Of a DNA stretch of 64,000 nt, positions 1 to 31,456 are shown one piece after another (position 1 is the stretch's first letter; each line of letters starts with the position of its first letter). The notes beneath the pieces were generated by a model. That model saw only the letters and a list, made by a program, of their open reading frames with translations. It did no database searches and was not told where the DNA came from. Source of the stretch: a virus; IMG/VR virus record IMGVR_UViG_3300042465_002544, positions 7,052-71,051 of that record, one strand, 5' to 3'. Position numbers and translations under genes: made by a program.

Positions 1-1
1 G

Positions 2-3000
2 ATAGCTGGACATAATACAAATCAGTTTAGAGCTGGAACAGGTGTTATGAAAAGACTGCAAATGGAAGGTCATCGTGAGCAAATGCTTAATAGTATGTCT
101 CCGATATCTCAAAGTATTCCTTTATTTAGAGGAACTGTTCTTAAAGAAAAGGGTGCTAATGAATTTTCAGGTGTAGGTGCTAGAGAACTTCTAATGTACA
201 TTAAGAACGGAATGTTTGAAAAGGCTATGGGTAAGAAAATCCAGTGGTCAGATATGCAATCATTTTCTACTATTCCAGATATCTCAAACTATAATAAGTT
301 TATTGAATCTTGGACAAACCCTTCAAATACTAATTCAAAGAAGGCAGTAGATAGACAATTAGAGTCTATGGCAATGCTTCCAGTTATATTTAGATTAGCA
401 AGTGCTCAAGGACAAACTGGCTTTAACATATCTTCAAAGGCTATGGTTCAAGAAGTTATGGGAAGCCCTGTTGATGAAAAAGAATGGGTATTAAATAATC
501 CATCTGGAACTATTACTGGTATCCGCCAAGATATGGGTACAAAGCACCACATTATTGATCTTATGCAAAAGGGTGGTAGAGTACAAAGCCATGCTGAGGA
601 GTCAAAAGATTTAAGTGAAGCCTTTGAAACCTACAAAATAGGATATAGTGGTTATGAACCAGAAGGACATGACTATTTTGAATTAATACGAGACTATGGA
701 AAGGGTGCTGGAGCATCAGTAACTCTTAGACCAAGTGATGTTGTTAAAAATGGATGGTTGATAGATAAGGCATTCTCTAGTGGTGCTCCTCAAACAGCAA
801 TAGTTGAATTAATGGTACAAGCAAGAAAAATGGTTCAAGAACAAGGTGGAGACTTATCTATAAGGGCAATTAAGAATGAAGGAAGCTATTCTACTTTTAG
901 TGCACCTATGCTTTTAGCAGCAGAAAGAATGGGTCTAATCTCATTTTCAGAAGAAGAAAAATTACAATTATCTGGTGCTAATCAATATACTATGCAAGAC
1001 TTTCTGGATGGTAAAGATCCAGAAGAAGGTATTCAACAAAATATTTCAACTAAACAAACTGCGGAAGCGGCTATAACAGCATCTCTTAAGTTTGTTAAAG
1101 GCTTTAAGCCAAATAAAAGAGGGCAAGATGAAACAGTAGAAAAAATAGATCCTTTGCCAAACTGGAAAAAAGAATTTTTAAGACAAAAGAGTATACCTTT
1201 AAAGAAGCAAATGGGAGGTAGAATACAAAGCCATCAAGATGAATCATTTAGAGCACCGTTCCAAAAGACAGACAAAGAATATGAAACTGTTTACAAGTGG
1301 ATTTCTGGAGAACTTGATTACTTTAGACAAAGAAAGAATGTAAAGGGTCGCTGGACTGATTCTGAAAAGTTTGACGCAGAAAGATACCAGCAACTTCTTG
1401 GCGTAATGCGTTCTGTTCCAGAGGGAACACGAATGATGAGAGGCTCTGTTCTTAATCCAGGAATGTCTGGAGAAATGTCTAAAGAAACCCAACTTGCAAT
1501 GCTTACTGCTATTCAAACTGGTGATTATGGAAGTCTTTATGGAATGGAAGTTTCATTTAGTGATTTTGCATCTTTTGCTTCAAACTTTATGGGTGAACAG
1601 TATGGTCCTAGAGGAGCAAAGGGAATAAGTAAGTTTTCACAGGTCGCATACAACAAGTTATACAGAGGTGTGCATAGTAGAGATACTGAAAGCGGTAGGT
1701 TCTTTGATGACATTGAACGTCAAAGGGCTATTGGAAAGGAATCAAAATATGGTTCTTCTCCAGTTATGTATGATTTTACTGCTGGACCAAATACTCAAGG
1801 TAGAGATATTTCTATGGGAGACCCATCAACAGGAGCACCATATCCAAAATATAATGAAGGATGGGTATCTGATGTACCAGATGGTATTAATGAAATCCTT
1901 ACATATGGAGCACAAGGATCAATTACTGGGGTATCTTCAGACATCCAATCACGTCAACCAATTATTCACATGCAGGGTAAACAAATGGGTGGAAGAATTA
2001 ATGGATATGGTGATGACTCAAAGGAGTTAGCTGAGTGGACTTCTGGGGGAATGAAGGGTGTTAGAGGTAATCTTTACAAGTATCAAGCATTAACCAATCA
2101 GGCATCATCTATTCCTGCAGGAATTAGACTTGGAAGAGGAACAGTTTTAAATCCAGGACTTTCAAAAGAACTTTCTGCAGAACAACAAACAATGCTTTTA
2201 GCTGCTATTCAATCTGGTGACTACTCAAGCGTTATTGGAAAAGAATTAAACTTCAGAGGTCTTAATTCATTCTCTGAAAGTTCTATTGGTGCAAAGTATT
2301 CTACTGAGAACAATTATCCTATTAGCAGATTTATGGATAATGCTCTTGCTCCATACAGTGCTGTTGGTCAATCTGGATCGTTAGCAAAAGCAGTGGCAAG
2401 TGAATTGAAGGTAGGACCAGCAGGGTACTCTGGAGCATTCTTTGATTTTACTACTGGTAAAAACACCAAAGGTATTAATGCTGGACTAAGGTCATTAAAT
2501 CAGCTGCAAGAAACAATTCTTAGCTCCCCATCTGGAAGAATTACTGGTGTCTCATCTGATACTCAAAAAAAGAAACCGATATTCCATATTCAAGGATACC
2601 AATCAGGTGGAAGAATTAATGGATATGCAGATAAGTCATTAAGTAAAAAAGATTTAGCTTTCCAAACAGCACTTGAAGCTGGAGTTCCGATTAACTATCT
2701 TAATAATGCTGTATTAAGATTTCCAACTTCTATAAATCAAGCTTGGAGAAATAGTGGAGTTGTTCCAGGAAAAGACATTATAGGTGCTTTAAAAAATAAA
2801 AAACTTAATCCATTAATGCTATTTAAGCACTATCTTGGAAAAAATATTAATCCATCATTTGAAAATCAAGTTGTTTCAAAAGTTAATCCAAAAAATAATT
2901 ATTCCGAAGACGCTTTTGCAAAAATATTTAGACAGCAGCTTTTTGCTTCTCATCCAAAAGATGAGCAAAGAAAAATTATTGATCAAATCTATGCTGCATC

Positions 3001-6000
3001 GGCATGGCGTATAGACAAAAAAGACTTAATTGGAACAGAGTTTGAAGAAAATATTAAAGGAAGAAAGCTAATCGTAGATGGCGTAGAAATTCCTATTAGA
3101 GGAACAAGAACTTTGCCAGCACAATATGGAAGCTTAGAGCCTTTTGAAAATTTAAGAAAGAAAAAAGATTTTGGTTTTGCTGCACCAGGAGTCCAAGCAA
3201 CACATGTTAATCAGAGCGGTTCTGTTAAACCTTTCAGACTTAAATCACATGCAACTGAAACAACTTCTTGGGATAAGAAAGCAGCAGCACCTAAAGCATA
3301 TGCAGGTGTATTGCAAGGTATTCCTAATTGGGCTACAAAGGCTAATGAATATAATGCTATTGTTTCTGCACTACAAAATGCAGGTGTTCCTCAATCAGAT
3401 AGACTTGCATCATTCTATATTCAAGATGTATTAGCACATATTAATCCATCCACCACAAATGCTAATGGAATATATGAAAAGGTATGGTCAGCAGCTAACT
3501 TGATGAAAGACTCTCAAGTTTACAATGTATTCCTTGAGACTTTAAACAGCAGAAAAGATATTGGTGGATTATTAAATCCTTCCACCGTCTCAAGAGTTGC
3601 AGGTGCATCTGGATTACCAATGCCAGTAGTTCAAGCAGAACTAACAAAGATTGCAGATGGTGTTCATCCAAATACCGCAAACGGTGCAAAGGTTATGATG
3701 ACACTTGCAAGAATGTTCCCATCTAGAACTTCTCCAGGAATGCCAATCGCTGTTGCAGCAGGTATGGGTGCAAGATTACAAGGTAATTTCTATGACACTC
3801 TTGGACAAAGAGCATTACCTTCAAGCCTTCCAAATACAACTGTAAGGGCATATGATCCAAAGGGTACTGGAGCACCAACATCTACTACACAAGGCTCTAG
3901 AACAGCCTCTAGTGGCATTGTAATGCCATCTGGAGCTATTAGACCAGGAATGGTAATGCCAAACATTCAAAGTATTCCATCAGCAGCAGGTGGATTTGAG
4001 TTTTTGCCTACTTTTGGAGGAGATCCAATAGCTGCAGCAGCACTTGCTGTTGGTCTTGGTGGATTGCTTGCAGGAAAAGTTTATAGAGCATTAAAAGATG
4101 AAGTTTCTTACGAAAAGAATTACAGAAAACATCAAAAAGAAATAAAAGAATATCAAGGTTCTAGACGTGCTACCTGTGGTGATTCTGGTGGAATAATTGC
4201 TTCTGGAAGACCTTGTAGTAACCCAGTTGATAATCTTGGTGAAAGATGCTACCTTCATAAAAAACAACCGATGACTGACGAGCAAGCTATTAAATTGACT
4301 TTGATGAAGGTAAATAGTATGGGAAGAGTTGTTAATCCAACTCAACCTAAAAAACCTTTTATGTCTTTTGATAGAAACACTCCTAATACTGGACCATTTA
4401 TATCAAGAGTTAAGGGTCAATCTGGTGGAACAGGAACATCTGCAACCGTTAAGGTTGATGGAATGGGTAATGTATTGTCAAATGGCATTGATGATATGGT
4501 TGCAAATACTATTATGGGTCAACCTATTGCGGTATCTAGTAAGGAACTTCTTGCAATCGGACCAAACGGTGGTATTGCAGGTGTAACATCTCCAGGAGAT
4601 GAAGCTAGAGGAAAGATTGTTCATCCTATGGGAACAGCATTAATGCGTGGAGGAAAGTTTAAACAACAAAGGCTTAAGGGTTTTGCTGACGAATCAATGA
4701 CAGAACCTGTATATCAAGATCAAATATCTGGTGGAAGAATGGATAATTTTGGTAGATCTATGTCGCTAATGATTGGTGGATTTAACTCAGTAAGGTATGC
4801 CCTTGAGCAGTACACATCTGAAACTAATTATGCAACTGATCGTGTTGGAAAATTCACAGCAAAAATGAATCTTGCTGTACAAGCAGTTTCTATGGCTTCA
4901 CAACTCGCTCAAGATGGTGGTGCTCAAAGACTTCAAAGTTTTGGTAGAGCTATGGACTTTAGCCAGATAGATGCACAAAATAGAGATCCAGCAATGATAG
5001 CAAGAATAGAACAAGTTAAAAAAGCAACAGCAAGATTACAAAGTATTTATGAAGCCCAAGGCGTTGAGGATGCTGAAACTAGAGCAAAAACTAAGGGAGC
5101 TGGAGCAGTCTTTGGAGCACGAATGAACGATCTTGTAGACAATAAAGGATATTCTCCAGATGAAGCACAAAAATTAATGCAAAATAGGATTAATTTTGAT
5201 AGTGGTAAGATTACTTCAAAACTACCAACAAAAGTAGGAACTGGTTTGGGTAAATTATCAGGAATGCTTGGTGGTGGATTAGCTAAATTGGGCGGTCCAG
5301 GACCAATGATGGCTTTACAAGTTGGAGTTATGGCTGTTACAAAAGCCGTTGAAATATATCAGGCAGAAATGGTAAAGGCAAGGGAAGCAGGATCTGGTGC
5401 GTTTAAAGAGCCACTAGAGACAGCAAAGTTACTTGGTGTTGAATTAAAGTCTTTAACAGCAGATACAGAAAGATATGCAAAGTTTGCAGAAACACTTTTT
5501 GGTTCTCAAGGGCGTGGTGCTTACGATAAAGTTTTTGCAGAAACAGTTAGAAAAGACTATGGAGATTTCTTAGATATTCTTGGTAAGTCTGTAACCAAGC
5601 AAGAGCAAATGAATCAACTTACAAATGTTTATAGTAATCTAATTCAAAGAGGAATGGATCCAAAAAATGCTAGAGACCTAACTGCTGAAATAGCTAGGCA
5701 AGGTCTAGCAATGACTGCATTTAATGAAATTCAAAATTCTTTTAGTTTAAAAGACACCCCTGCTGACGCAATGAAGATGCAAACACAATCACTTGAAAGT
5801 CAAATTGGAGTACTTCAAGACAGATCAAACCAGTTTGGTGTAAAGGGACAGTGGAATGGACAAAACCTTGGTGAGTTACAACAGTCACGAGCAATGAATG
5901 AAGACGTAATGTTTGAAGCTTTGGGTGCCACTGGAGACGGTCTTATGGATAAAGCAATCAGAGGTTATTTTGGAACTAAGGGTCCTGGCGGATATATTGG

Positions 6001-7948
6001 TGGTGGAGGTGCAATAACTTCCTTAATTGCACCATTCCTACTTGATGCAAAAACAAAAGAACAGATAGCAGCACAAATTGGTGCAACATTAAAGGGAGCT
6101 TTTGCAATAGCTGCACAAGATCCAGTTGCTTCAAATGAGGCAGTAAATGCTATTGTTGCAAACTTTAAAAATGCAGATACTACAAAAATACAAGAAGAAG
6201 TAGGAAAACTTGCGGAAGAATTTGGTTTTGGTGATCTTACAAATACTGGAATGTTCATAGACTCTGGTGCTTTTACAAGTCTTGGAACAGAAAGCCAGAG
6301 CCTTTTCTTAAATGCATTAAAGGCTGGTCTTGGTCCAGAATTAGATAAGATGCTTGCTGACGGTGACTTAAGCCCTGAAGAAGAATCAGCACTAAAACAA
6401 AAAACCTTAGAGGCTATGGCTATCATGAAGATAGATGTAGAAATTGATTTACAGATTGATGAAACAACAAAGCAACTACAATCAGTTCAGGATGAATTAA
6501 ATAAACTTTTTGATGTCGCATTAAAAGGAAAGCAAGAAGAAATAGTTGCTGAAGACAAACGTCATGAAAATGCAATGAAAAATCTTGATAATGAGTCTCA
6601 AAGATTAAATGATAAAAAACAACTACTACAAAGAAATACTGACTATTACATTAAAGAACTTCAAAGAGAAAAACAAGCAGAAGATTATTATGCTGGTCAA
6701 AGAGATACCGCCCTTCAAGGATTAAGTGCAATATCTCAAGGAGATGTTTTTGGATTTATTGGTGCACAGATGAAAGCTGCATCAACTGCAGATCAGTTTG
6801 GTCGTGATAGGTCTATAGAGTCTATTCAAGAAACTGCAGATATTGCACAACAAAAACTTGATGATGAACTAAAGGCTGTTGACCTAAGAAAACAAGCAGA
6901 AAGTGAAAGACATGCTTTAGAAATAGCTAACATTAACCTTGAGATTGAGGCACTTAATAAAAAGAAAGCTACTGCAAGTGGAGACATTCAAAAAGCAATA
7001 AAGCTACTTGAAGAAGCAAAGGCTTTACAGGGATCAAAAGATCCAGAAGTTATTAAGGTTTATAATGAAAAAATTGCACAAGCATATCAGGCTGCTGGCA
7101 CTGCAATAGATCAAGCTAAGGAAGCAGCAGGATTTGTTGACAAGACTGGTCTTTCTCCAGACCTTCAAAAAGAAATGGATACTGCTCAAAAAGACACAAC
7201 AAAAGCCCTAGATACCTTCTACAAAGATACTGATACAGCAATGCAGTATATTGCAAATGGTGGTGAAGGGGGATGGGATATTCTTCTTACTGGAATGTCA
7301 GAGGCTACTAAAAAGATATTTGATGATACCGCAAAGAGTCTTAATATTGATGCCAATTCTAAAGAGTTTAATTCAGCTGCAAATTTCTTAGCTGCTGCAA
7401 TTAATTCTGGAACTACTATGACTTTAAATGGATACAGAATAGTAACTAATTCTTCAAATCTAAGAGAAGACAATGTAAAAGTTAAACAGGCTTCTGGAGG
7501 ATATATTTCTGGTCCAGGAACTGGAACATCAGATTCAATACCAGCAATGCTTTCAAATGGAGAATATGTAGTTAATGCTTCTGCAGTAAAAGCATACGGA
7601 CCACAACTTATGAATAGTATTAATGCCAAAAAATTTGCTGTTGGTGGAATGGTTGGATCAATGCCATCAGCATCTTCTGCTCCAGGTTTTGCTGGTGGGG
7701 GAAGCGTTCCTATGCCAACTATATCTGCACCATCTAGTCCAAAATATAATATTCCTTCTGCAGGTGGAGGAATGGCACCATCTCCTATTGCTCAAATGGC
7801 TCGTGGTGGAATGATGAATGCATCTTCCAGTGATAATAGTTCTTCTTATAACTTTAACTTTAATGGTGCAGGAATGGATATGGTTATGAGCCACGTTAAT
7901 AAAGCTGTTGGTGGTAGAATTAGTAGTAATTCTAGGAGAATTGGTTAA
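2..7948 (+). CDS. Tape measure protein (5'-truncated) with embedded enzymatic cargo modules (3 ADP-ribosyltransferase-like domains and others)
   Basis: Frame is open to the window edge upstream of the ATG at 47. More than 2600 aa, with Ala/Gly-rich helical and hydrophobic stretches, a long coiled coil and the C-terminal ASGGYISGPGTGTSDSIPAMLSNGEYVVNA motif typical of TMPs; directly followed by minor tail genes. Confidence 0.85.
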   Translation: MAGHNTNQFRAGTGVMKRLQMEGHREQMLNSMSPISQSIPLFRGTVLKEKGANEFSGVGARELLMYIKNGMFEKAMGKKIQWSDMQSFSTIPDISNYNKFIESWTNPSNTNSKKAVDRQLESMAMLPVIFRLASAQGQTGFNISSKAMVQEVMGSPVDEKEWVLNNPSGTITGIRQDMGTKHHIIDLMQKGGRVQSHAEESKDLSEAFETYKIGYSGYEPEGHDYFELIRDYGKGAGASVTLRPSDVVKNGWLIDKAFSSGAPQTAIVELMVQARKMVQEQGGDLSIRAIKNEGSYSTFSAPMLLAAERMGLISFSEEEKLQLSGANQYTMQDFLDGKDPEEGIQQNISTKQTAEAAITASLKFVKGFKPNKRGQDETVEKIDPLPNWKKEFLRQKSIPLKKQMGGRIQSHQDESFRAPFQKTDKEYETVYKWISGELDYFRQRKNVKGRWTDSEKFDAERYQQLLGVMRSVPEGTRMMRGSVLNPGMSGEMSKETQLAMLTAIQTGDYGSLYGMEVSFSDFASFASNFMGEQYGPRGAKGISKFSQVAYNKLYRGVHSRDTESGRFFDDIERQRAIGKESKYGSSPVMYDFTAGPNTQGRDISMGDPSTGAPYPKYNEGWVSDVPDGINEILTYGAQGSITGVSSDIQSRQPIIHMQGKQMGGRINGYGDDSKELAEWTSGGMKGVRGNLYKYQALTNQASSIPAGIRLGRGTVLNPGLSKELSAEQQTMLLAAIQSGDYSSVIGKELNFRGLNSFSESSIGAKYSTENNYPISRFMDNALAPYSAVGQSGSLAKAVASELKVGPAGYSGAFFDFTTGKNTKGINAGLRSLNQLQETILSSPSGRITGVSSDTQKKKPIFHIQGYQSGGRINGYADKSLSKKDLAFQTALEAGVPINYLNNAVLRFPTSINQAWRNSGVVPGKDIIGALKNKKLNPLMLFKHYLGKNINPSFENQVVSKVNPKNNYSEDAFAKIFRQQLFASHPKDEQRKIIDQIYAASAWRIDKKDLIGTEFEENIKGRKLIVDGVEIPIRGTRTLPAQYGSLEPFENLRKKKDFGFAAPGVQATHVNQSGSVKPFRLKSHATETTSWDKKAAAPKAYAGVLQGIPNWATKANEYNAIVSALQNAGVPQSDRLASFYIQDVLAHINPSTTNANGIYEKVWSAANLMKDSQVYNVFLETLNSRKDIGGLLNPSTVSRVAGASGLPMPVVQAELTKIADGVHPNTANGAKVMMTLARMFPSRTSPGMPIAVAAGMGARLQGNFYDTLGQRALPSSLPNTTVRAYDPKGTGAPTSTTQGSRTASSGIVMPSGAIRPGMVMPNIQSIPSAAGGFEFLPTFGGDPIAAAALAVGLGGLLAGKVYRALKDEVSYEKNYRKHQKEIKEYQGSRRATCGDSGGIIASGRPCSNPVDNLGERCYLHKKQPMTDEQAIKLTLMKVNSMGRVVNPTQPKKPFMSFDRNTPNTGPFISRVKGQSGGTGTSATVKVDGMGNVLSNGIDDMVANTIMGQPIAVSSKELLAIGPNGGIAGVTSPGDEARGKIVHPMGTALMRGGKFKQQRLKGFADESMTEPVYQDQISGGRMDNFGRSMSLMIGGFNSVRYALEQYTSETNYATDRVGKFTAKMNLAVQAVSMASQLAQDGGAQRLQSFGRAMDFSQIDAQNRDPAMIARIEQVKKATARLQSIYEAQGVEDAETRAKTKGAGAVFGARMNDLVDNKGYSPDEAQKLMQNRINFDSGKITSKLPTKVGTGLGKLSGMLGGGLAKLGGPGPMMALQVGVMAVTKAVEIYQAEMVKAREAGSGAFKEPLETAKLLGVELKSLTADTERYAKFAETLFGSQGRGAYDKVFAETVRKDYGDFLDILGKSVTKQEQMNQLTNVYSNLIQRGMDPKNARDLTAEIARQGLAMTAFNEIQNSFSLKDTPADAMKMQTQSLESQIGVLQDRSNQFGVKGQWNGQNLGELQQSRAMNEDVMFEALGATGDGLMDKAIRGYFGTKGPGGYIGGGGAITSLIAPFLLDAKTKEQIAAQIGATLKGAFAIAAQDPVASNEAVNAIVANFKNADTTKIQEEVGKLAEEFGFGDLTNTGMFIDSGAFTSLGTESQSLFLNALKAGLGPELDKMLADGDLSPEEESALKQKTLEAMAIMKIDVEIDLQIDETTKQLQSVQDELNKLFDVALKGKQEEIVAEDKRHENAMKNLDNESQRLNDKKQLLQRNTDYYIKELQREKQAEDYYAGQRDTALQGLSAISQGDVFGFIGAQMKAASTADQFGRDRSIESIQETADIAQQKLDDELKAVDLRKQAESERHALEIANINLEIEALNKKKATASGDIQKAIKLLEEAKALQGSKDPEVIKVYNEKIAQAYQAAGTAIDQAKEAAGFVDKTGLSPDLQKEMDTAQKDTTKALDTFYKDTDTAMQYIANGGEGGWDILLTGMSEATKKIFDDTAKSLNIDANSKEFNSAANFLAAAINSGTTMTLNGYRIVTNSSNLREDNVKVKQASGGYISGPGTGTSDSIPAMLSNGEYVVNASAVKAYGPQLMNSINAKKFAVGGMVGSMPSASSAPGFAGGGSVPMPTISAPSSPKYNIPSAGGGMAPSPIAQMARGGMMNASSSDNSSSYNFNFNGAGMDMVMSHVNKAVGGRISSNSRRIG

Positions 7949-7950
7949 TA

Positions 7951-8469
7951 ATGGCTTTTGAGACACTTGCACAAAAATATTTACGTCCATCTTTAATTGT
8001 TTGGTCAGACTCAGAGCCACTAAACGGTGCAGATCCAAGTAAGTGGGATTTAGGAGAAAACTACCTATATATATCAGATAACAATAGAGCAGAACTTTCG
8101 GTATCTTTTGAGCGTATTGAGTACAAGCAAAGAATGATTAATGGAACAATGAGATCCTATCACGTTGCAGATAAAAAGAATTTTTCTACATCTTGGGAAA
8201 AGCTTCCTTCTAGAAAAACAGAAGTAACTGAATATTCTGCATCTTCAAATTTTGCAGGTGGACAAGAAATGCTTAAATGGTATGAAGAACATACTGGAGA
8301 TTTTTGGATGCTATTAGTATATGACGTAGATAGCACTGTTGCAACAACAGACATAAAGAAGAATGTTGAAAAAGTAAATGTATTTTTTGGTGATTTTTCA
8401 TATAACGTAACTGATAGAGGTCAAACAACAGATTTATGGAATATTAATCTTTCATTGGTGGAAGTGTAA
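7951..8469 (+). CDS. Minor tail / distal tail-like protein
   Basis: 172 aa directly after the TMP; RMINGTMRSYHVADK motif seen in post-TMP proteins of large actinophages. Confidence 0.7.
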   Translation: MAFETLAQKYLRPSLIVWSDSEPLNGADPSKWDLGENYLYISDNNRAELSVSFERIEYKQRMINGTMRSYHVADKKNFSTSWEKLPSRKTEVTEYSASSNFAGGQEMLKWYEEHTGDFWMLLVYDVDSTVATTDIKKNVEKVNVFFGDFSYNVTDRGQTTDLWNINLSLVEV

Positions 8470-11400
8470 ATGTTAAGCACTGGAAATAGTAATTTAGATA
8501 AGTTAATTAAAAATGAGATCGCTTCCAAAAGCAGCCTTGACTCAGTACATCAAGTTATTGCAGAGTGGAACTATAATGCATATACAGAAATGGATAGCAT
8601 TGGATGCTTTAAAACAAATGCAGTTGACTCAGCATCTTTTGACGATGGGGTACAGACAGAAACATATACTTCAGATAATAATACTGTAGTAGCAGAACCA
8701 GATATTAAAAGAATTAAGTATACCCCACTGAAAGATATTTTTGGAATTAACCGTCCTAATCCAGGAATCATTCATTCTGTTTATAATAATCTTGCAAGTA
8801 ATAATAAAAAACCATTAAATGGAGATGCTGATCCATTAACTATTTCTAGAATATTTAATATGATTTCTGAAGATACCAGACTTTACCCTATGTCAAGAAA
8901 TTCTCAATATCGTTATTGGAACTCTGCAAGAAAAGTAAATAAGACTTTGGTTGGTGTATCTGCATTAGATAAAAATATAAATCATGCAGCACCATTTATT
9001 AAATACAAAACAGAGATAAGTGCTAATAAGATTGTTGTAAAAACACAGAAACATTTAGGATATCCTTTAGCATACCGAATAGATACTTTTGATGGAGCAA
9101 ACTGGTCAACTGCATATGAAGCAACAGGTACCTCAAAGCAAATACAGTCATTAAGCCATACAAACGGATATTACACTTTTGTAATGCCAAGTGATCATGG
9201 AATCAAATACCTAGATGATGTATTATTGTCAAGAAATGGTCTTTACTATACAGTTTCTGCTGTTTCTGAAAACAATGTTACATTTTATTCACCTTTAGAT
9301 ATTGCTGGAATTACAGCAGGAGACACTTTGACGGTAACTAATATGTATGATGGCAAAATAGACATATATTATGATCCTGAAAACGGTGGTTCTTGGGGAA
9401 GGTATACGCCATACCTATATAATGCAGACGAAAAAACTGTTACCGATTTTAGTACTACAAATAATCAAACTAAGAAGATTAAAGGTCTTAGGTTTGTTGC
9501 AACTAAAATGTCTGAATCATATATCCCATTAGAGGTTATTGAGCTAAGTCCAAGACTAGTAGCAGATATAACTAATACCGTCATAAGCTTTGATGTAAAT
9601 TCATCAATCGGTCAGTCTCAATATGGTCTACCAGTTGGAACAATTATTTCATCTTCTGGTTCTTTGAAGCTCTCAAACACTGAAAGATTTTTTAATAAAA
9701 ACAATGAAAACTCCATCCTTAAAGATATTTTAAGACCAAATGTTCAGGTAAAGCTATATCAAAAAATGACAATAACTGGTATTAATTATAGATTTCCCTT
9801 AAAGGTTATGTACACAGGAATGTGGAATGAGTCTCAGGATATGACAGTTGACACTCAACTAGAAGACTATTTTAAATTTTTTAGAGAAATGTCTGCTCCA
9901 GATTTAATGTCTGCTAATGCAAGTGGAATACCAACATCTGTAGCAATCTTATTACTGCTAGACAATATTGGATTCAATGCTTATAAGTTTCAAAAGACTT
10001 CAAATGATGCAGATCATGAAGATGTTATTTTAGATTATTTTTATTGTAAAAAAGAACAAACCGTCCTTGAAGTTCTTGAAGCTATTGCGGTTTCAACTCA
10101 GACATCTATTTATATAGACTATGATAGCTATGCAGATAATGAAATAATTGCTATGACAAAAGAAAGAATGCTTGCTTCAAAAGAAAATAAAGACTTCTGG
10201 TTAATAGGTAATGATGGAACAACAACAAAGAATTTAGACTTTTTTGGAGGAGCAGTAACAGAGGTTGACTTTATTTCAAATATTTCTTCTTTTCAAGAAA
10301 ATATTGAAGCACCAGTAACAGACATTAATGTTCAATATGCAGGTATTGGTTTAGAAAAAGCTAGTGTATTGCTTCGTGGGCTGGATATGGATAAGAAAAA
10401 AGATATTTTGGAGGGTCCAACTTTTGGAGCAAGTGCTGATGGAAGAGACTTAAGGTATGCTCGTGATAAGGTCTGGACCCCATCAACAAATAAAGATAAT
10501 CCAGAAAATTATTTAGCTGCATCTGGATTAATTTCTAATATGTCTAATGTTGCACCAAAAACTTTATTTTCTAATACCGTAAAGAATGCTCAAAATAAAT
10601 ACGATGCCATTAGAGAGTTTTACAAGGTAGCTGGTGCCCCAGAATCAATGTGTATATATTTAGACAAAGAACTTATTAACACCTTTACTAATTCTTATTC
10701 TGGATACATATTAGTTGAAACAGAGCTTATTAGATACGAAGGAATTAGATTTTTAATATTTAATCCAGTAACAAAAAAAGCAAGTAGAAAGATTTTGTTT
10801 TCTAAAGAAGAATACTCTTTTGAAAGATCAAGGCTTGGTCAGGGCGGTAGCATAGAGCCAGAGGCATTGATTGTTTACCTTGAAATGAAGTCAAAAAACT
10901 TAACGCTTCCCCAAAAAGAATTTACAGTTGTTTCTGACGGTAGAGGTCAAAAAAACACAAAGGTTGAATCTCATAAAGGAATAAACACTGCAAAAGAGTT
11001 TTTATCAACGAATCCTGAATGGACAAAATTTGGTGGTCAGCTATATGGGGATAACGCTATATCCACAGGCATTGTAGATGCAGTAAAAGCAAGCAATGTA
11101 GTAGATACTCAAATTGGTAACGCTAGTATTGGTGAATCTGGAACAGTAAAAAGTGCAGTTGGTTACTTAAAGCTAACGGCTCCACCATCAAGTATTTCTG
11201 GCAGAGAGAAAAGCTCAATAAAAGAAAGTACTAGTATTAAAAGAAATTTGCCAATGAATAGCGTATCTGAGCAAATAATTACTGGAATTGTAAGAGATGT
11301 AAACACTCCTATTAGAAAAATTGGAACAAGAATGAGACTTGTTTCAAGTGTTCCAAAAAATGTTAATGCAGGAGAAAAATTAATAAAAGATGGAATTATT

Positions 11401-12618
11401 GCTGGTATTGGCTGGAACATAAATAAATCATCTGGAGATTTTTCTGGATATGTTGTAGAAATAGAAGAGGTTGGCACTATTGATGCTGCTTCTTTATTAG
11501 ATGCAAAATATAGAAACTTAAGATTTTATAGAGTAAACTCAAATAACACTATTAAGTTTTTTGGAAATGCTTGGGTAAATGTTTCTGGAACGCCAAGCGA
11601 ATATATGGACTTTGGTTCAGCCGTTGCAGATGCTACTCAAAAAGGAAAGTCTTACGCAACCATTTTTGACTTAGAGGTAACTATTAGAAAAAGTCCAAAT
11701 AAGCAAAGAACCTACTATGAGGTGTCTTGGGAAAATCAAGTAGTTCTAGAGGCTAATGAACTCACTTCTGACATTCTTTCAGAAAGGCAAAACATTGCCT
11801 TGCTTACAAGAGGTCCTTCCGCAGCAATATATGAATATGTTTATGCTTTTTCATCTCCAGATGATGTTACTATTCCAAATTCAAGTTCTTTTGTTACAAA
11901 AAGTTCTAACGTAACTGCCTCACAACTAGCTGCTAGAGGGTTACTACCAGATGTTATTAAGATAAATACAGACTCCGATAAAGCTATTGAACTAAAGGGA
12001 ATATTCGAAGATTTTGGAAAGATGGTTAGAGAGGTTAAAAAGTTTGATGTTAGGTATCAGTATCCTTCTTTAAGCCCAGCACTAGTAAGCCTAGCCGAAT
12101 ATAATCCAAACTATTATATATCAGACTTTACAACATCTTCTTTTGGATCATCCTTCTGGGTATATAATACTGCAAACGGTGCTATTCAAATTGATGAGTC
12201 AGCATTTACCCCTCTTTATGTTTCTGCTTTTACCCTTAAAGAAATTATGCCAGGAACTTTACAGTCTAGCAAATATGTTGAGGTAGCACAAGAAGATAAA
12301 ACCCTAACGGACGGTTTTGATTTAAATAGACAGACTTACGGAAAGCAAGAAATAACTTTATCTGGAGCATATATTAACAACTTGGATCAAGCAAGAAGCC
12401 TTGCTGACTGGGTAGTATCAAATGTTTCAAAAGAAAGAAAAACTATAAATATAGGAATTTTTCCAATACCTATTCTAGAACTTGGAGATAAAGTTGGTAT
12501 TTTGTATAGCGACAAGTTATATATGGATAGCAATAAATCTTATACTGTTACATCAGTATCTCATTCAATTACCCAATCTGGTCCACAGATGAATATTGAA
12601 GTTAAGGAGTGTATCTAA
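8470..12618 (+). CDS. Large minor tail (baseplate hub/tail tip) protein
   Basis: 1382 aa; position in tail operon; C-terminal hub-like YGKQEITLSGAYI...LELGDKV...YTVTSVSH. Confidence 0.7.
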   Translation: MLSTGNSNLDKLIKNEIASKSSLDSVHQVIAEWNYNAYTEMDSIGCFKTNAVDSASFDDGVQTETYTSDNNTVVAEPDIKRIKYTPLKDIFGINRPNPGIIHSVYNNLASNNKKPLNGDADPLTISRIFNMISEDTRLYPMSRNSQYRYWNSARKVNKTLVGVSALDKNINHAAPFIKYKTEISANKIVVKTQKHLGYPLAYRIDTFDGANWSTAYEATGTSKQIQSLSHTNGYYTFVMPSDHGIKYLDDVLLSRNGLYYTVSAVSENNVTFYSPLDIAGITAGDTLTVTNMYDGKIDIYYDPENGGSWGRYTPYLYNADEKTVTDFSTTNNQTKKIKGLRFVATKMSESYIPLEVIELSPRLVADITNTVISFDVNSSIGQSQYGLPVGTIISSSGSLKLSNTERFFNKNNENSILKDILRPNVQVKLYQKMTITGINYRFPLKVMYTGMWNESQDMTVDTQLEDYFKFFREMSAPDLMSANASGIPTSVAILLLLDNIGFNAYKFQKTSNDADHEDVILDYFYCKKEQTVLEVLEAIAVSTQTSIYIDYDSYADNEIIAMTKERMLASKENKDFWLIGNDGTTTKNLDFFGGAVTEVDFISNISSFQENIEAPVTDINVQYAGIGLEKASVLLRGLDMDKKKDILEGPTFGASADGRDLRYARDKVWTPSTNKDNPENYLAASGLISNMSNVAPKTLFSNTVKNAQNKYDAIREFYKVAGAPESMCIYLDKELINTFTNSYSGYILVETELIRYEGIRFLIFNPVTKKASRKILFSKEEYSFERSRLGQGGSIEPEALIVYLEMKSKNLTLPQKEFTVVSDGRGQKNTKVESHKGINTAKEFLSTNPEWTKFGGQLYGDNAISTGIVDAVKASNVVDTQIGNASIGESGTVKSAVGYLKLTAPPSSISGREKSSIKESTSIKRNLPMNSVSEQIITGIVRDVNTPIRKIGTRMRLVSSVPKNVNAGEKLIKDGIIAGIGWNINKSSGDFSGYVVEIEEVGTIDAASLLDAKYRNLRFYRVNSNNTIKFFGNAWVNVSGTPSEYMDFGSAVADATQKGKSYATIFDLEVTIRKSPNKQRTYYEVSWENQVVLEANELTSDILSERQNIALLTRGPSAAIYEYVYAFSSPDDVTIPNSSSFVTKSSNVTASQLAARGLLPDVIKINTDSDKAIELKGIFEDFGKMVREVKKFDVRYQYPSLSPALVSLAEYNPNYYISDFTTSSFGSSFWVYNTANGAIQIDESAFTPLYVSAFTLKEIMPGTLQSSKYVEVAQEDKTLTDGFDLNRQTYGKQEITLSGAYINNLDQARSLADWVVSNVSKERKTINIGIFPIPILELGDKVGILYSDKLYMDSNKSYTVTSVSHSITQSGPQMNIEVKECI

Positions 12619-13727
12619 TGGCTGGAACAGGAGCAGGAGGAAAACAGTCTAATAATTCTGGAACAGAAACAGGAGGAAGACAAGGAAGTGAAAATTCAGG
12701 TAAAGATATAGGTAATACTGCTGGTGCAACATCAGAATATTCTTTTTACCAAAATGTAACTTATGGTGCAACACCATATGGACTTCTTAATCCAAGCCAG
12801 CAAACTCTATATGGTGTTCTTAAGCAAAAAGTTGCATATGGCGGTCTTAAAGCATTAAATACAAAATCTATGCAGTCAATAGGTCAAGTGTTTGACCAGA
12901 ATAACTCTAACACCTATCAATCAGCTGGAGAAAGAATAAATCCAGTAATTGTTAGCTCTATACAAGATATTAAAGATAGGGTCGGTAGTGCAAGCCTAGC
13001 AACTACTGATCACGGAAGAGAGGGTAATGCAAAGCTTCCTACTGGTATGTATCGTGATACTGGACAAAATAGATATTATTTAGTATTAGATAATAAACAA
13101 AAAACAAGTAAAAATCCACCATTAATTGGTGCTACGCCAACAACTTCATATCAGTTGCCTGTTGTCAAGCCAGAGATAAATCCAAATCCTAGTCCTCAAA
13201 TAGATTTTCCTAAAGCTAGGAAACAGAAAAAACCAGATGAAGATTTAATCTTTAATTCTCCAGACTATAAGGCAACTTATGAAGAAGTAATTAGAGAGAT
13301 GTCTCTTTCTTTAATTATGGCAGGAGACGATATTATATCTAACTATAATTATGAAAGCATTGACTCTTTGCCAGATATTGATGTTGAAATTAAAATTTCA
13401 GGTGGAGAATATCTAAACGCAAAAGAAGTAATTGATAAAGGATTGGGAGGTGAAATACTACAATCACTAATAGATGGAAGCATATCAAGTGAAGAGGCTG
13501 AAGCAGCTAATAGAATATTACTTTACTTAGAGGGTCTTATTGGAGAAGAAGCTACCTATTCTCAAAAAATGAAGTACTTTGGAAAGCTTTCTCCAAATAA
13601 CTCTTCATTTACTCCTGGAGTTGCTAGAGATGGAGACTCACTACTTATTGACTTTAATGTTGATTTGCCAGATAGTTTTCAGATTCCTGGGGCAAATGAA
13701 ATAAGGGTTAGATTTGATCCAGTTTAG
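12618..13727 (+). CDS. Putative virion/tail protein
   Basis: ATG overlaps the upstream TAA; within tail operon; Gly/Ser-rich N-terminus. Confidence 0.55.
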   Translation: MAGTGAGGKQSNNSGTETGGRQGSENSGKDIGNTAGATSEYSFYQNVTYGATPYGLLNPSQQTLYGVLKQKVAYGGLKALNTKSMQSIGQVFDQNNSNTYQSAGERINPVIVSSIQDIKDRVGSASLATTDHGREGNAKLPTGMYRDTGQNRYYLVLDNKQKTSKNPPLIGATPTTSYQLPVVKPEINPNPSPQIDFPKARKQKKPDEDLIFNSPDYKATYEEVIREMSLSLIMAGDDIISNYNYESIDSLPDIDVEIKISGGEYLNAKEVIDKGLGGEILQSLIDGSISSEEAEAANRILLYLEGLIGEEATYSQKMKYFGKLSPNNSSFTPGVARDGDSLLIDFNVDLPDSFQIPGANEIRVRFDPV

Positions 13728-13743
13728 TGCTAAAATATAGATT

Positions 13744-14742
13744 ATGAATGGTATTTATAGAATTTACGAAGATGGAAAATTAATTAGAGAAGTTAAAAAT
13801 AAGCTTACCTTGCTTGGCAGGTCTAATGCACTTAGTACAATGCTTGGACTTACACAATCTTTTGCAGGATCTCTTGGAGTTGGCATATCTTCTTTATCTA
13901 ATTCAGATACTAAAGTTTTGCCAACAGGTGCTGTGTTTTTAAATATGACAGACTTAGACTATGGAGTAGGAAAATATCCAGTTACATCCACAAGTCTTGG
14001 TCAGGATTCAAGCCAAACAAAGGATGCACTTGTTTACACCGCAAGAATAACAGATCCAAGTAGATATACGATTTATGAGCTTGGTCTATTTAGTAATCAG
14101 ATAGCAGGTTCTGTTGATGTTGATGCACTTTCATTGCTTGGGTTTGAGGGTGGTGACTCACTAAAGGAAACTGTATCTTCTGTAGATTATTATTTAGACG
14201 ACACAAACTCTACCTATATCGCAGGAAGAAAGGCAACGTATGAAACTAATAATACCAACTATAGAATTGGATCAAATGCCGTAAAACTTTTGTCTGGATA
14301 TTCTGTATTTATTAGTGATTCTGTTTTTAACTTAACAAACTTTTATTCTCCAGATAAACTTAAACTTGCTTTTTATGCAACAGGAACAAGCGTAGTTGTA
14401 AAGGTAAGATTTTATAATGGGGCAAATAACAACGCAGAATTTACATTTAACTCTGGGGCTGGTGTTGTCAACAATGCATATAATGTTGTGTCTTTATTAA
14501 AATCACAAGCAGTTATTACTGGAACTATGGATTGGTCGGTAGTTGACAAAATAGAAATATTGGTTTCTGGTGGAACAAATGCAATTCTAGATGGATTAAG
14601 AATTGAAAAAACAAAGCCTATTGATTCTATTGATGGTTTGGTATCAAGAGCGGTGCTAGATTCAAATACTAAGATTGACAAACAGGCAGGAAGCATCATT
14701 GACATTGAATACCTACTTACATTTGATTTGGATGCTGGATAA
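13744..14742 (+). CDS. Minor tail protein
   Basis: 332 aa; tail operon; N-terminal GIYRIYEDG...KNKLT and ELGLF motifs typical of tail-fibre attachment/baseplate proteins. Confidence 0.6.
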   Translation: MNGIYRIYEDGKLIREVKNKLTLLGRSNALSTMLGLTQSFAGSLGVGISSLSNSDTKVLPTGAVFLNMTDLDYGVGKYPVTSTSLGQDSSQTKDALVYTARITDPSRYTIYELGLFSNQIAGSVDVDALSLLGFEGGDSLKETVSSVDYYLDDTNSTYIAGRKATYETNNTNYRIGSNAVKLLSGYSVFISDSVFNLTNFYSPDKLKLAFYATGTSVVVKVRFYNGANNNAEFTFNSGAGVVNNAYNVVSLLKSQAVITGTMDWSVVDKIEILVSGGTNAILDGLRIEKTKPIDSIDGLVSRAVLDSNTKIDKQAGSIIDIEYLLTFDLDAG

Positions 14743-15914
14743 TGCCTATAAATCTTAATGCTTTGGGATTAATTCCTTCCACTCCATATAATGTTTCTAT
14801 TACTATGACAATTGGAGATAGAGAGATTGACAGTTTAAGGTCATTTTCTTCTACCACTCCTCCTATTTTTAATAAAAATCTTGTAGACTATGCTCCACAA
14901 AGTGCTATTATAACTAGAAATTTTGTAACCACAAGAGCAGCTCGTGCTGCACAAAATGATGTTGCTATAACAGGTACTTTTAAAATTCTTTCTATGGCAG
15001 CAAATTTTACAGGAAAAACTGTTGAGGGTACTAAGGTTCCAAAAAAATGGAGTGGTGGAGGACCATTAAATCAACAAGCACCAGTAATTCAATTAAAGTA
15101 TAAGCTAGACAAAGATCTTACTAATGCAATTGTAGTTTCATCAAATCCTTCAGATATTGCTAAAAAATATTTATTAACCCCATTGACAGGTGCTCGAACA
15201 ACTAAGAAAAAAGTTGTTTCAGTAGAGGTATCGGCAGCTGAACTTGGGTGTAAATGGAGTTCTATTCATAAAGAGTGGACTGGTGGAGTAAGAGGTGAAA
15301 CATTTTGGAACAAGGGAAATAGGGATAAAAAAGGATTTGGTAAATATTTAACAGCCTATAAAGGAACTGGAGCATTCGGTGGGTCAAAAGATATTCCAGC
15401 GGTTACTGGAGTTAAAAGCCTTACAAGCAAACTGAGAACTTCTGTAGATCCAGCTGTTACACAGCTATTAGTTAATGGAGAAGAAATAAAAGATGTTATT
15501 TATTTTCTTTATTCTGACTCAACAAGTAATCCTCCAGCAGAAAGTAGCTATATCTATTTAGACTCATCTTTTGTAGCAGCAAGCGGAGTAAACACAACTA
15601 CACAAGGCTGGACAAAAGCTTCAGGTAGAAACTTTAAGACTGGTTCAACTTATAATTTTCCAACATATTCAAACGCTGAGATATCTGCAAGAAGAGTAAT
15701 CTCTCAGTCCCTAGTTGATGCAATAGTTTTTTCTAATACGTCTCAACAAGTAGATAGCGTAGAGGGAGAAGTTGATGGTTCTTTATCTTATCCTCAAAAT
15801 GTTAATATAGCCTTTACAATTATAAGATATACTCTTACTGGAGACTCTTGGGCTCCTTCGTGGATTGGAGGGGAAACTAAGATGTCTTCACCAACATCGG
15901 CGGTTATTACATAA
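14742..15914 (+). CDS. Putative virion protein
   Basis: 390-aa ORF translationally coupled within the tail operon. Confidence 0.55.
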   Translation: MPINLNALGLIPSTPYNVSITMTIGDREIDSLRSFSSTTPPIFNKNLVDYAPQSAIITRNFVTTRAARAAQNDVAITGTFKILSMAANFTGKTVEGTKVPKKWSGGGPLNQQAPVIQLKYKLDKDLTNAIVVSSNPSDIAKKYLLTPLTGARTTKKKVVSVEVSAAELGCKWSSIHKEWTGGVRGETFWNKGNRDKKGFGKYLTAYKGTGAFGGSKDIPAVTGVKSLTSKLRTSVDPAVTQLLVNGEEIKDVIYFLYSDSTSNPPAESSYIYLDSSFVAASGVNTTTQGWTKASGRNFKTGSTYNFPTYSNAEISARRVISQSLVDAIVFSNTSQQVDSVEGEVDGSLSYPQNVNIAFTIIRYTLTGDSWAPSWIGGETKMSSPTSAVIT

Positions 15915-24314: not shown

Positions 24315-24646
24315 CAAAAAGTGAGGCAAACCTAGCTTTTGCATTACTCACATATTATTCAAAGAAGTTTGAAGATAGATATGGCAAGAAGCCAAACATA
24401 AATAAGTATAAAGAAAAATGGGCTGCCTCATCTATCCTAGAAGACTTTGAGTTTGACAATGCTAAGTTAATTATTGATTACTACTTTACCTTATCTAAAG
24501 AAGGACACCCACTTTCGTGGCTATTTAATAACTTTGATAAGTTAAAAGATTCAGTAGAATCAAACGAGCAAGATAAAATATTAAGAGCAGAGCGTAGAGC
24601 ACAGACAATAAAGTTGAGAGAAGAGTGGTTAAATGGGAATGCGTGA
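24311..24646 (+). CDS. Hypothetical protein (possible helicase loader)
   Basis: GTGA overlap; immediately upstream of DnaB. Confidence 0.6.
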   Translation: MTKSEANLAFALLTYYSKKFEDRYGKKPNINKYKEKWAASSILEDFEFDNAKLIIDYYFTLSKEGHPLSWLFNNFDKLKDSVESNEQDKILRAERRAQTIKLREEWLNGNA

Positions 24647-25865: not shown

Positions 25866-25879
25866 TCTATAATGGTTAT

Positions 25880-26215
25880 ATGGAGTTCGCAGGACACAAG
25901 AAAATTAAAGAGTTTACCATAGATGGTCAGATCTATGATGAAGCTGATGTAATGCGTTTGAAAGAAAAGTATAACTCCATAATGGATCATTATCTTAGAA
26001 GTCAGGGATATGTTCCACATTTAGACCTTGACATAGTTTTTACTATAGATTATAATGGTAACTGGTTCGACTTTAAAATAACAATGTACGGTATTTATTT
26101 AGGAAAGGCAAAAGCAAAATGCTATATGGGAATAACAGGAAGCAAGCTAATTCCAATGACTCCTACGACCCAGAGCAAGTCAGAGAAATCATCACATCGT
26201 GTGGAGTCTCAATAG
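25880..26215 (+). CDS. Hypothetical protein
   Basis: 111-aa ORF between helicase and primase; TATAAT 6 nt upstream. Confidence 0.65.
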   Translation: MEFAGHKKIKEFTIDGQIYDEADVMRLKEKYNSIMDHYLRSQGYVPHLDLDIVFTIDYNGNWFDFKITMYGIYLGKAKAKCYMGITGSKLIPMTPTTQSKSEKSSHRVESQ

Positions 26216-27072: not shown

Positions 27073-27078
27073 TAAAAT
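27050..27078 (+). promoter_or_regulatory. SigA-type promoter
   Basis: TTGACT-17-TAAAAT. Confidence 0.65.
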
Positions 27079-27123
27079 GTTGTAACAGACCCACATATGG
27101 GGTCAAATATTAGGAGAAATATT

Positions 27124-27780: not shown

Positions 27781-27787
27781 AAGCCAC

Positions 27788-27829
27788 TTGACAGACTTGG
27801 GGGCGGTAGGCTATAATTGCTTATCGCCC
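27788..27829 (+). promoter_or_regulatory. Promoter with its -10 box in the loop of a hairpin
   Basis: TTGACA-18-TATAAT; GGGCGGTAGGC/GCTTATCGCCC stem flanks TATAATT. Confidence 0.65.
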
Positions 27830-27851
27830 TCACTAATTTTATTGGAGAAAA

Positions 27852-31115: not shown

Positions 31116-31456
31116 ACCTAGATAATTTAGCAAGAAGCGTACACTATAATGCAACAGAAAAAGGTTTTTGGGATTATATGTATTCCAATGTAGAGCCAGT
31201 TGGAGATACCTTTGTTTTCTTTGCAAAACAAATAGCAATGATCCACTCTGAGGCAACAGAAGTATTAGAAGCACTAAGAAAGCAAAAGGGTGCAGGAGAA
31301 GTTACAGAAGAACTAGCAGACATTATCATTCGTGTAGTTGATCTATATGAAGGATTACTAATGGCTGGTGAAGCAGCAGGTTCTCTAGAAGACATTGTAA
31401 CAAAGAAGACAATCACCAATAGCCAACGCCCAAAAATGCATGGCGTACTGGGATGA
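31112..31456 (+). CDS. MazG-like nucleotide pyrophosphohydrolase
   Basis: IHSEATEVLEALRK...EELADIIIRVVD. Confidence 0.8.
   Translation: MNLDNLARSVHYNATEKGFWDYMYSNVEPVGDTFVFFAKQIAMIHSEATEVLEALRKQKGAGEVTEELADIIIRVVDLYEGLLMAGEAAGSLEDIVTKKTITNSQRPKMHGVLG

Follow-up and report, generated by a model that had tools for sequence, protein, structure and literature searches.

A giant phage tape measure protein with a modular array of predicted ADP-ribosyltransferase-fold and other cargo domains delimited by a recurring junction motif

The stretch considered here, a window of 64,000 nucleotides (nt) covering positions 7,052 to 71,051 of the IMG/VR virus record IMGVR_UViG_3300042465_002544, opens inside a long open reading frame (ORF) that encodes most of a giant tape measure protein (TMP). 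The whole gene occupies 4416-14999 of the 71,051-bp contig, with its start 2,636 nt before the window; it encodes 3,527 amino acids (aa), and its ATG overlaps the end of the preceding small ORF; residue numbers in the window equal those of the full protein minus 879. PF10145 (PhageMin_Tail core) matches full residues 239-438 in Pfam (E-value 4.6e-31; 108.7 bits against a cutoff of 33.2), and the PHROG TMP families 3547, 25241, 23013, and 36688 match the C-terminus at window residues 2273-2586. Upstream, a major tail protein-like ORF (contig L001, 2928-3632) is followed by a 110-aa G-like ORF (3744-4076), and downstream come a 172-aa ORF (Dit-like) and then a 1,382-aa minor tail protein (phrog_10359). 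By its Pfam and PHROG matches and its gene order, the 3,527-aa protein is a TP901-type TMP of a siphovirus-type tail, the identity that an earlier note on this stretch had given to the long ORF, and it is part of a giant-TMP family (about 2,600-3,800 aa) whose members so far come only from metagenomic and viral contigs. The same note placed the motif region described below in the N-terminal ~1550 aa; since the window cuts the ORF, this region in fact lies mid-protein, at full residues 660-2445.

The middle of the protein is punctuated by copies of a short peptide motif (table 1). All six copies that the earlier note had listed were recovered, each string occurring once and in the frame of the long ORF, and comparison with relatives identifies the two termed degenerate as real homologs of the canonical motif. 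Upstream of the window, further canonical copies lie at full residues 660 (LRMGGRMPGYSNNSS) and 720 (FQKGGRMPGYADTS), together with a partial copy, SQGGRLP. The first five motifs in the window are spaced 214, 258, 206, and 204 aa apart. The full protein has five matches to the pattern Q.GGR[IVLM], compared with a mean of 0.019 and a maximum of 2 in 20,000 residue shuffles, and a six-frame scan of the contig found it confined to the TMP gene. The cargo in this phage consists, in order, of a domain assigned to the ADP-ribosyltransferase (ART) fold, module D, two more domains so assigned, and module G.

Table 1. Features of the TMP gene and its product. Window positions are in nt, full positions in residues of the 3,527-aa protein
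Feature	Window position	Full position	Strand	Basis or remark
TMP gene, 3' 2,648 codons	2..7948		+	long ORF cut by window start
TMP N-terminal part, TP901-type, conserved		1-661	+	PF10145, relatives
First B element		662-721	+	reads GGRMPGY...VPAMLEPGEYVV
Linker		722-879	+	
ART-like copy 1	2..571	880-1069	+	paralog of copies 2 and 3
Junction motif 1, QKGGRVQSHAEES	566-604		+	string located in ORF frame
Module D	572..1213	1070-1283	+	GNAT-like by eye only
Junction motif 2, QMGGRIQSHQDES	1208-1246		+	string located in ORF frame
ART-like copy 2	1214..1987	1284-1541	+	paralog of copy 3
Junction motif 3, QMGGRINGYGDDS	1982-2020		+	string located in ORF frame
ART-like copy 3	1988..2605	1542-1747	+	AlphaFold2 model, fold searches
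Junction motif 4, QSGGRINGYADKS	2600-2638		+	string located in ORF frame
Module G	2606..3235	1748-1957	+	44-47% identical to last cargo module of several relatives
Degenerate junction 5, QSGSVKPFRLKSHATET	3212-3262	about 1950	+	relatives read QSGGRINGYATETT here
H1 domain	3236..3964	1958-2200	+	in all close relatives; contains DVLAHINPSTTN
Insert, hydrophobic helix and Cys/His motif	3995..4426	2211-2354	+	only this phage and L007
Small conserved beta-rich segment, GTSATVKVDG...KELLAIGPNGGIAGVTSPGDEARGKIVHP	4427..4648	to 2428	+	
Degenerate junction 6, RGGKFKQQRLKGFADES	4646-4696	2428	+	conserved RG[GKR]xF..R[LI]x[GN]F site in relatives
C-terminal TMP body	4724..7486	2456-3374	+	PHROG 3547 match
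Second B element, QASGGYISGPGTGTSDSIPAMLSNGEYVV...	7487..7636	3375-3424	+	similarity to first B element
C-terminal tail, x-GG-x-hydrophobic repeats (FAVGGMVG, FAGGGSV, ARGGMMN, AVGGRISS)	7637..7945	to 3527	+	

Used as the query of a word-index search, the cargo region retrieved 40 proteins of 2,008-3,812 aa, all from metagenomic or viral assemblies and all but one with PF10145. The looser pattern GG[RK][IVLM]xx[HYF]x(2-3)[ST] is present in two to seven copies in 35 of these 40 relatives, whose 161 GGR[IVLM] sites give the consensus [FKMY]-Q-x-G-G-R-[IVM]-[NPQ]-[GS]-[YH]-A-x-x-[ST]. Scans of viral and metagenome contigs found 44 loci, with the whole gene in about a dozen. In more distant giants, which are 37-40% identical in the TMP N-terminal part (one of them a 4,885-aa PF10145 protein), the same kinds of domain are surrounded by the variant [KQ]-x-GG-x-[IV]-x-G-[FY], in many cases with another GG after it. 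Among 56 distinct nucleotide instances of the motif the second glycine is encoded by GGA (24), GGT (24), or GGC (7) and the arginine by AGA (45), CGT (6), or CGC (4). Given this synonymous codon variation at invariant motif residues, the constraint is on the peptide and, judged from the codons, selection on the junction motif acts at the peptide level.

The motif is an inter-domain junction, conserved as a peptide, and cassettes are exchanged between phages exactly there. When the 35 motif-bearing proteins were cut at the motif and the pieces were clustered, 22 architectures were obtained: the pieces at the two termini do not vary, and the stretch between them is put together from about ten families of pieces. 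Module D illustrates this, being present in a subset of relatives and standing second in one of them and fourth in this phage. Two counts, both drawn from related genomes, so that inherited breakpoints are counted repeatedly and the figures describe a pattern and do not count events, place the breakpoints at the motif: in blastn comparisons between 15 genes, 283 of 419 ends of high-scoring segment pairs (at least 80% identity, at least 150 nt) in the cargo region fall between -30 and +60 nt of the first motif Gly codon, compared with 43.7 +/- 6.5 (maximum 61) in 200 randomizations; and among 57 junctions from 12 genomes, compared over 90 nt on each side, the junction pairs with similar flanks between genomes are similar upstream only in 76 cases, downstream only in 44 (120 one-sided), and on both sides in 25. 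At the junction at 1748, the comparison with L003 gives 100% identity upstream, 88% in the motif, and 27% downstream. These results bear out the earlier note, which took the motif to delimit swappable modules and looked to the splitting of homologous TMPs at the motif as a check: module content is variable, not invariant. We regard a modular cassette architecture with the motif as its delimiter as highly probable.

The exchange joint can be placed more closely. In close relatives the B element, a second recurring element taken up below, starts with Q-x-GG|SAWVPG, and in this phage and its two nearest relatives nine extra residues, RMPGYSNNS, follow the GG. This suggests that RMPGYSNNS is a half-motif left at a junction and that a unit of exchange begins with R-[IVM]-x-G-Y-A-x-x-S and ends with Q-x-G-G, the joint falling between GG and R. 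A module unit can therefore be written as R-[IVM]-x-G-[YH]-A-x-x-[ST], a globular domain, and [hydrophobic/K]-Q-x-G-G, and adjoining units of that form create the junction Q-x-GG-R-I-x-G-Y-A-x-x-S. Junctions whose flanks are unrelated (30% identity, the random level for the composition) agree at 61% of positions in the 42-nt motif window, and 15% of unrelated-flank pairs share an exact run of at least 12 nt, with a maximum of 27. Such short nucleotide identity, or microhomology, would serve as a crossover site that guides cassette exchange; beside this, the phage encodes a RecA homolog. Microhomology alone could also explain the clustering of breakpoints if the motif were a neutral recombination scar or, since three of the four canonical copies in the window adjoin paralogous ART-like domains, if it were the conserved edge of a tandemly duplicated domain. 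However, we consider it very unlikely that the motif lacks a peptide function in either of these ways: it also bounds the mutually dissimilar modules B, D, and G and families 3, 4, 5, 8, and 9 of the relatives, its residues are kept through synonymous changes that include AGA versus CGT/CGC for Arg, and a recognizable variant persists in the distant clades.

Three of the five cargo modules in the window are predicted to be ART-fold domains with an R-S-E triad. They are paralogs of one another (segment-versus-segment BLAST: 32% identity and E 5.6e-33 for copies 2 and 3; 25% and 5.8e-9 for copies 1 and 3), and an alignment of 22 diverse domain sequences has just three invariant columns, R50, S94, and E175 (copy 3 numbering). 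Copy 1 has the R in LFRGTVL (nt 122-142), SFS (260-277), and E-K-E in DEKEWVL (473-493); copy 2 has the R in MMRGSVL, the S in SFASNF, and the E in GINEILT. In an AlphaFold2 model of copy 3 built from the 22-sequence alignment (mean predicted local distance difference test score, pLDDT, 78.2; predicted template modeling score, pTM, 0.76), R50, S94, and E175 lie in strands 47-54, 92-96, and 175-179, so that the model has the Arg on strand 1, Ser-x-Ser on strand 2, and the Glu at a strand start. The modeled fold spans residues 10-203 of 206 and thus starts and ends at the motif, where the earlier note had drawn the domain borders; motif residues 1-7 (GGRINGY) have a pLDDT below 50, which may only reflect their position at the chain end.

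Fold searches with the copy 3 model agree. Foldseek against the PDB gave 85 hits at E-values up to 1e-3, led by C3 exoenzyme (C3bot1) at 6.5e-7, the top matches all being ARTs of the C3, Vis, CDTa, iota Ia, and C2-I kinds. An independent search of 48,161 representatives with VIA-align gave Z scores of 11.3 to CPILE-a (root-mean-square deviation 3.2, 147 aligned residues), 11.0 to VIP2, 10.8 to Vis, and 10.4 to C3stau2, with 16 ART chains at Z 11.3-8.1; all 23 rows with Z of at least 5.7 are ART-fold, after which Z drops to 4.4. Among the predicted viral structures of BFVD, the matches to copy 3 are VIP2-like proteins from phages of Mycobacterium and Gordonia, enzymes of the Alt/ModA/ModB type, and proteins in which an ART is fused to a portal, minor capsid, or head morphogenesis protein; no match carries a TMP annotation. 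From these matches and the invariant R/S/E, copy 3 is, on its model, an ART-fold domain of the R-S-E type (C3/VIP2/iota-like), and copies 1 and 2 can be assigned to the same fold by paralogy. The earlier note had pointed to the ART, GNAT, and nuclease domains of phage polyvalent proteins; an ART fold is predicted for three modules, and for a GNAT or nuclease identity of the others there were no Pfam or PDB sequence matches.

In sequence these domains stand apart. PDB profile searches with the ART-like domain gave no matches and then a best E of 0.5 to a ribosomal protein, and because there is neither a Pfam nor a significant PDB profile match we file the domains as a new sequence family, outside the families that Pfam already has. 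When 1.84 billion representatives were searched with a profile, no more than 25 clusters came up, nearly all of them proteins of 1,800-4,900 aa or fragments, with three short proteins matched over part of the profile, and 34 of 39 relatives have one to three ART-like domains. Stand-alone forms were limited to one fragment (P0042) in a word-index search of proteins of 105-501 aa; a metagenome scan with copy 3 gave 368 pattern hits, none of them confirmed, an ESM Atlas search with copy 3 returned nothing, and five distant hits (P0057-P0060 and P0062) have no Pfam ART family. The domains thus share with the C3/VIP2/iota-type ARTs and with T4 Alt/ModA/ModB the fold, as modeled, and an invariant Arg/Ser/Glu on the expected strands, but they differ in lying inside a TMP, in having no Pfam ART or PDB-chain sequence match, and in that only copy 1 has ExE. 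Its E-K-E corresponds to I-N-E in copy 2 and L-Q-E in copy 3, and the first module of a second clade, which corresponds to copy 1, also has ExE.

The remaining cargo is less easily placed. Module D has no Pfam match, and its PDB profile matches have E above 1; in the ESM Atlas its scores reach at most 0.89, and PF00583 occurs in 17% of the members of one cluster, which scores 0.88, so that a GNAT-like acetyltransferase is a weak lead and not a finding. A word-index search for stand-alone module D, restricted to near lengths, found one fragment (P0048). Module G has no Pfam match. In nine relatives H1, which follows the cargo, is conserved at 83-95% identity, and in L016 at 51%; it has no Pfam match, and a PDB profile search gave only designed helical repeats (E 0.005), which we take to be compositional. 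By eye, an invariant AHINPxTTN...N...N string in H1 is HNH-like.

The B element opens with the string that forms the first half of the junction motif, and from this shared string the junction resembles one half, split off, of an element with which ordinary TMPs bracket inserts. The two B elements of this protein are 46.5% identical (E 3e-8). In tblastn searches the B element matches 1,234 phage records, among them those of Mycobacterium (511), Gordonia (243), Pseudomonas (171), and Vibrio (89), and most of the 25 matches listed are annotated as tape measure proteins. Its sequence matches in the PDB (8zdo_S and 8rk3_A) are the TMPs mycobacteriophage Douge gp16, whose deposited sequence has two B elements, at 965 and 1413, and JBD30 gp46, which has one at 1020. 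Cell-wall hydrolase motifs are known in mycobacteriophage TMPs. In Gordonia phage GAL1 gp18 (L046 5638-7635) two B elements bracket about 450 aa with hydrolase-like strings, and by eye this insert is peptidoglycan hydrolase-like, with an SLT-like ES...GLFQ string. The protein described here has the same bracket as GAL1 gp18 and Douge gp16, namely two B elements around a non-helical insert inside a TMP, but those proteins hold one or two domains in it, with no shuffled array and no Q-x-GGR-I-x-GY junctions. The bracket design seems general in TMPs and seems not to be named in the structure papers, as far as their accessible text goes; according to that text, only residues 1,658-1,699 of the TMP are modeled in the Douge structure.

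Ordinary TMPs carry the B string, GG.I.GPG..D.IPA.LS.GE.VV, once or twice, and where there are two copies these bracket a non-helical insert of about 450 aa. In the TMPs L027 and L029 of a distant clade there are three B elements (at residues 996, 2547, and 3461 of L027), with all ART-like and other cargo between the first two and a long TMP body between the last two; the junctions of these proteins read GGxVPGFxxGG.

These relationships also feed the main rival explanation, according to which the motif is a docking or assembly strand whose partner would be the tail assembly chaperone, the baseplate hub, or the inside of the tail tube, or which would zip the three TMP chains together between cargo beads, while the TMP stays one chain. 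In its favor, the half-motif GG-x-[IVM]-x-G also opens the B element, GG[YR]IxGPG..D.IPA.LS.GEYVV, which occurs in the TMPs of the 1,234 records, and a conserved peptide of 13 residues exceeds what a flexible linker needs. In JBD30 the B element overlaps TMP residues 1022-1066, for which the accessible text of the structure paper predicts a hook, anchoring the TMP in the baseplate once it has been cut, as the authors speculate, at 1066 (PMC11445458); the hook, however, is itself only a prediction, and the irregular spacing of the motif, from 60 to about 780 aa in relatives, is a poor fit to a periodic contact with the tube. We consider this docking explanation unlikely.

The first B element bears on a further alternative, in which the cargo would be removed before the tail is built, the long ORF being a co-translational fusion of non-virion proteins to a TMP, or in which the ORF is an assembly artefact. 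At residues 662-721 the N-terminal part closes with a B element, an element that ordinary TMPs carry near the C-terminus, and the first 720 residues therefore resemble a complete short TMP. Nevertheless, it is only beyond the cargo that the other B element and the usual C-terminus of a TMP are reached, and the same uninterrupted architecture is found on independent contigs (L003, 3,560 aa; L007, 3,571 aa; P0003, 3,292 aa; and 30 more), which makes this alternative extremely improbable.

We favor, and think probably correct overall, a reading in which a modular TMP with exchangeable cargo would be delivered together with that cargo and may be cut into domains at the junctions. Because the TMP leaves the tail ahead of the DNA, it would carry its cargo into the host envelope or cytoplasm, where the ART domains would ADP-ribosylate host targets. 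The junction peptide would be recognized as the place to cut the chain into separate domains, either while the tail is assembled or once the protein has been ejected, comparably to T5 pb2, which is cut between its body and its muralytic C-terminal domain. Delivery of the cargo with the TMP we hold with moderate confidence, and the early-acting effectors that the earlier note saw in the cargo are putative. Proteolytic cleavage at the motif, argued by analogy, is a more tentative proposal, which we think less likely than not. As in viral polyproteins, a conserved site does recur between the domains. In its fullest form the TMP would be an effector polyprotein in which Q-x-G-G|R-I-x-G-Y is cut by a phage protease, by a host protease, or by self-cleavage, so as to free the ART-fold and other enzymes after expulsion, with the same motif swapping the cassettes and the B element as the ancestral junction; this combination we judge rather improbable. 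If it were true, a TMP acting as a cargo carrier with coded release sites would be a general, unrecognized feature of long-tailed phages.

The closest precedent for cleavage is T5 pb2, which, in the accessible text of the paper concerned, is cleaved after R1127 during tail morphogenesis and leaves a C-terminal muralytic fragment that stays in the tail and is expelled into the host envelope on infection (PMC10038345). Both pb2 and the present protein are TMPs that carry cargo, and in T5 the enzymatic domain is cut from the TMP body during tail morphogenesis; however, pb2 has one C-terminal muralytic domain, no repeated junction motif, and no ART, whereas here there is an internal array of five or more modules. 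The T5 record reads FVPR|AEGGMMYPGVSYQMGEHGTEVV at the cut site, and a GG-hydrophobic-x-x-G string and a loosely B-like stretch begin two residues after the cut. This resemblance is a lead only. A comparison of the C-terminal B copy with the pb2 C-terminus found no similarity.

Several observations weigh against delivery and cleavage as outlined above. The likeness to the T5 site is non-significant (BLASTP E 1.6 over 14 aa for the first B copy), and the GG pairs are one residue out of register. A motif scan, made with no profile search, found no HExxH in this protein, in 39 relatives (P0003-P0041), or in locus ORFs, and Pfam named no peptidase in 30 window ORFs, the contig being without the head genes, among which a maturation protease would be expected. 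It is not obvious how three chains with folded domains of 200 aa could be accommodated in the lumen of the tail tube, and the cargo would then be unfolded, located elsewhere, or removed before assembly, in which last case it would not be delivered. Furthermore, copies 2 and 3 are without the first Glu/Gln of the ExE/QxE motif and keep the catalytic Glu only, and no Pfam ART model matches any copy (no module has a Pfam match at an E of 1 or below); the ART activity of the copies is therefore uncertain, as is the substrate class of copies 2 and 3. PHROG scans of 20 further ORFs named no protease. A host protease, or self-cleavage at the junction, is possible.

Two other candidates for the processing step were considered and set aside. 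A GDSGG string is not taken as a protease, since its sole copy sits in a 28-residue Cys/His motif and not in a protease-sized domain. A link to GG|X processing of the adenain, African swine fever virus, or ubiquitin type was dropped, since it is an analogy only and a protease of that kind did not turn up.

In the usual view, TMPs are rulers and channel formers, with a cell-wall hydrolase as the most that they carry. In this phage the ruler has about 1,300 residues of exchangeable cargo, most of it assigned to the ADP-ribosylating-toxin fold, in sets that differ among relatives. TMPs with an embedded cell-wall enzyme, cleavage of the T5 and lambda TMPs, injected ARTs, and polyvalent proteins are already known; full-text searches, judged from titles and the openings of abstracts, found no ART arrays and no repeated junction motif in a TMP. 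T4 Alt is packaged in the head and injected. If the present cargo reaches the host, it would represent a distinct route, by which enzymes of host takeover or antidefense are injected ahead of the DNA. Short delimiters of exchangeable cassettes are familiar from polymorphic toxins, namely VENN in CdiA and PxxxxDPxGL in Rhs, the latter also being a cleavage point. In both systems a short peptide borders the cassettes and is the point of recombination, but a polymorphic toxin has one delimiter and one C-terminal cassette, whereas here a virion protein has several delimiters and several internal cassettes.

Close counterparts include the polyvalent proteins of phages and conjugative elements (Iyer et al. 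2017), which, in the accessible text of the paper that describes them, have ART and GNAT among their domains, are thought to enter the host with the DNA, and are proposed to be processed into units (PMC5512222). The present protein resembles them in that several unrelated cargo domains lie in one giant phage polypeptide whose architectures are extensively shuffled. It differs in that polyvalent proteins are defined around a zincin-like MPTase thought to process them, and there is no HExxH here; as far as that text goes, moreover, no conserved inter-domain junction motif is described for them, and the term tape measure protein has 0 occurrences in it (PMC5512222). Sle1-type effectors of actinobacterial contractile injection systems have, according to the accessible text, a TMP-derived scaffold with exchangeable domains and are loaded in the tail-like tube (PMC13277306). 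These are cargo proteins of a contractile nanomachine with a single C-terminal domain, whereas in the present case the tape measure of a phage tail itself is the carrier.

The junction motif predicts exact termini for proteomics, marks cassettes in metagenomes, and provides a link to the still unexplained processing of the TMPs of T5 and lambda. In terms of sequence, the modules of the cargo are "dark matter": as they have no Pfam matches and only 25 ART-like clusters are found among 1.84 billion representatives, this TMP family is a source of new enzyme families.

Beyond the cargo, the C-terminal TMP body reads as helical by inspection of its sequence, and it is itself mosaic, being 38-47% identical in most compared relatives and about 65% in two, while the adjoining H1 is 84-95% identical and the extreme C-terminus, where aligned separately, 62-76%; overall the body reaches 38-65% identity to relatives in which its flanks exceed 90%. 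The insert of about 140 aa between H1 and the small beta-rich segment has its hydrophobic helix, FEFLPTFGGDPIAAAALAVGLGGLLAGKVY, at nt 3995-4084 and a C-x15-C-x11-C-x2-H motif, which includes GDSGG, at nt 4175-4258; it is bounded by ..AAGG and ..QSGG, and it sits between ..SAAGG and GTGTSATV. As this insert sits at GG sites, the "constant" C-terminal part also takes inserts at such sites. By eye, the beta-rich segment that follows may be a B element copy that has diverged.

The 71,051-bp contig has none of the head-module genes (portal, capsid, protease, and terminase), and the genome is therefore incomplete or larger than 71 kb. The earlier note spoke of actinophage relatives; nothing was found that links this phage to actinobacteria. 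The G+C content is about 36%, and the cargo region has no match in 50,697 phage records (megablast and tblastn). A separate 167-aa ORF (window 44958-45461) has a weak match to SLT transglycosylase (E 1.6e-4; 21.6 bits against a cutoff of 21.3), and from this match cell-wall lysis may be provided from outside the TMP. Upstream of the TMP gene, the -1 frame of the next ORF is open from contig nt 4028 and overlaps the end of the 110-aa G-like ORF, the arrangement expected of the usual G/G-T tail assembly chaperones with their G/G-T frameshift. In the region L001 3744-4423 the G-like ORF is 94-100% identical in ten compared relatives and 78-84% in the second clade, and it is conserved while the TMP cargo differs among those relatives. 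A replication and recombination set lies at window 24633-32497 and comprises a DnaB-like helicase, a DnaG-type primase, a Pol III alpha-type polymerase of 1,087 aa with a PHP domain, and RecA.

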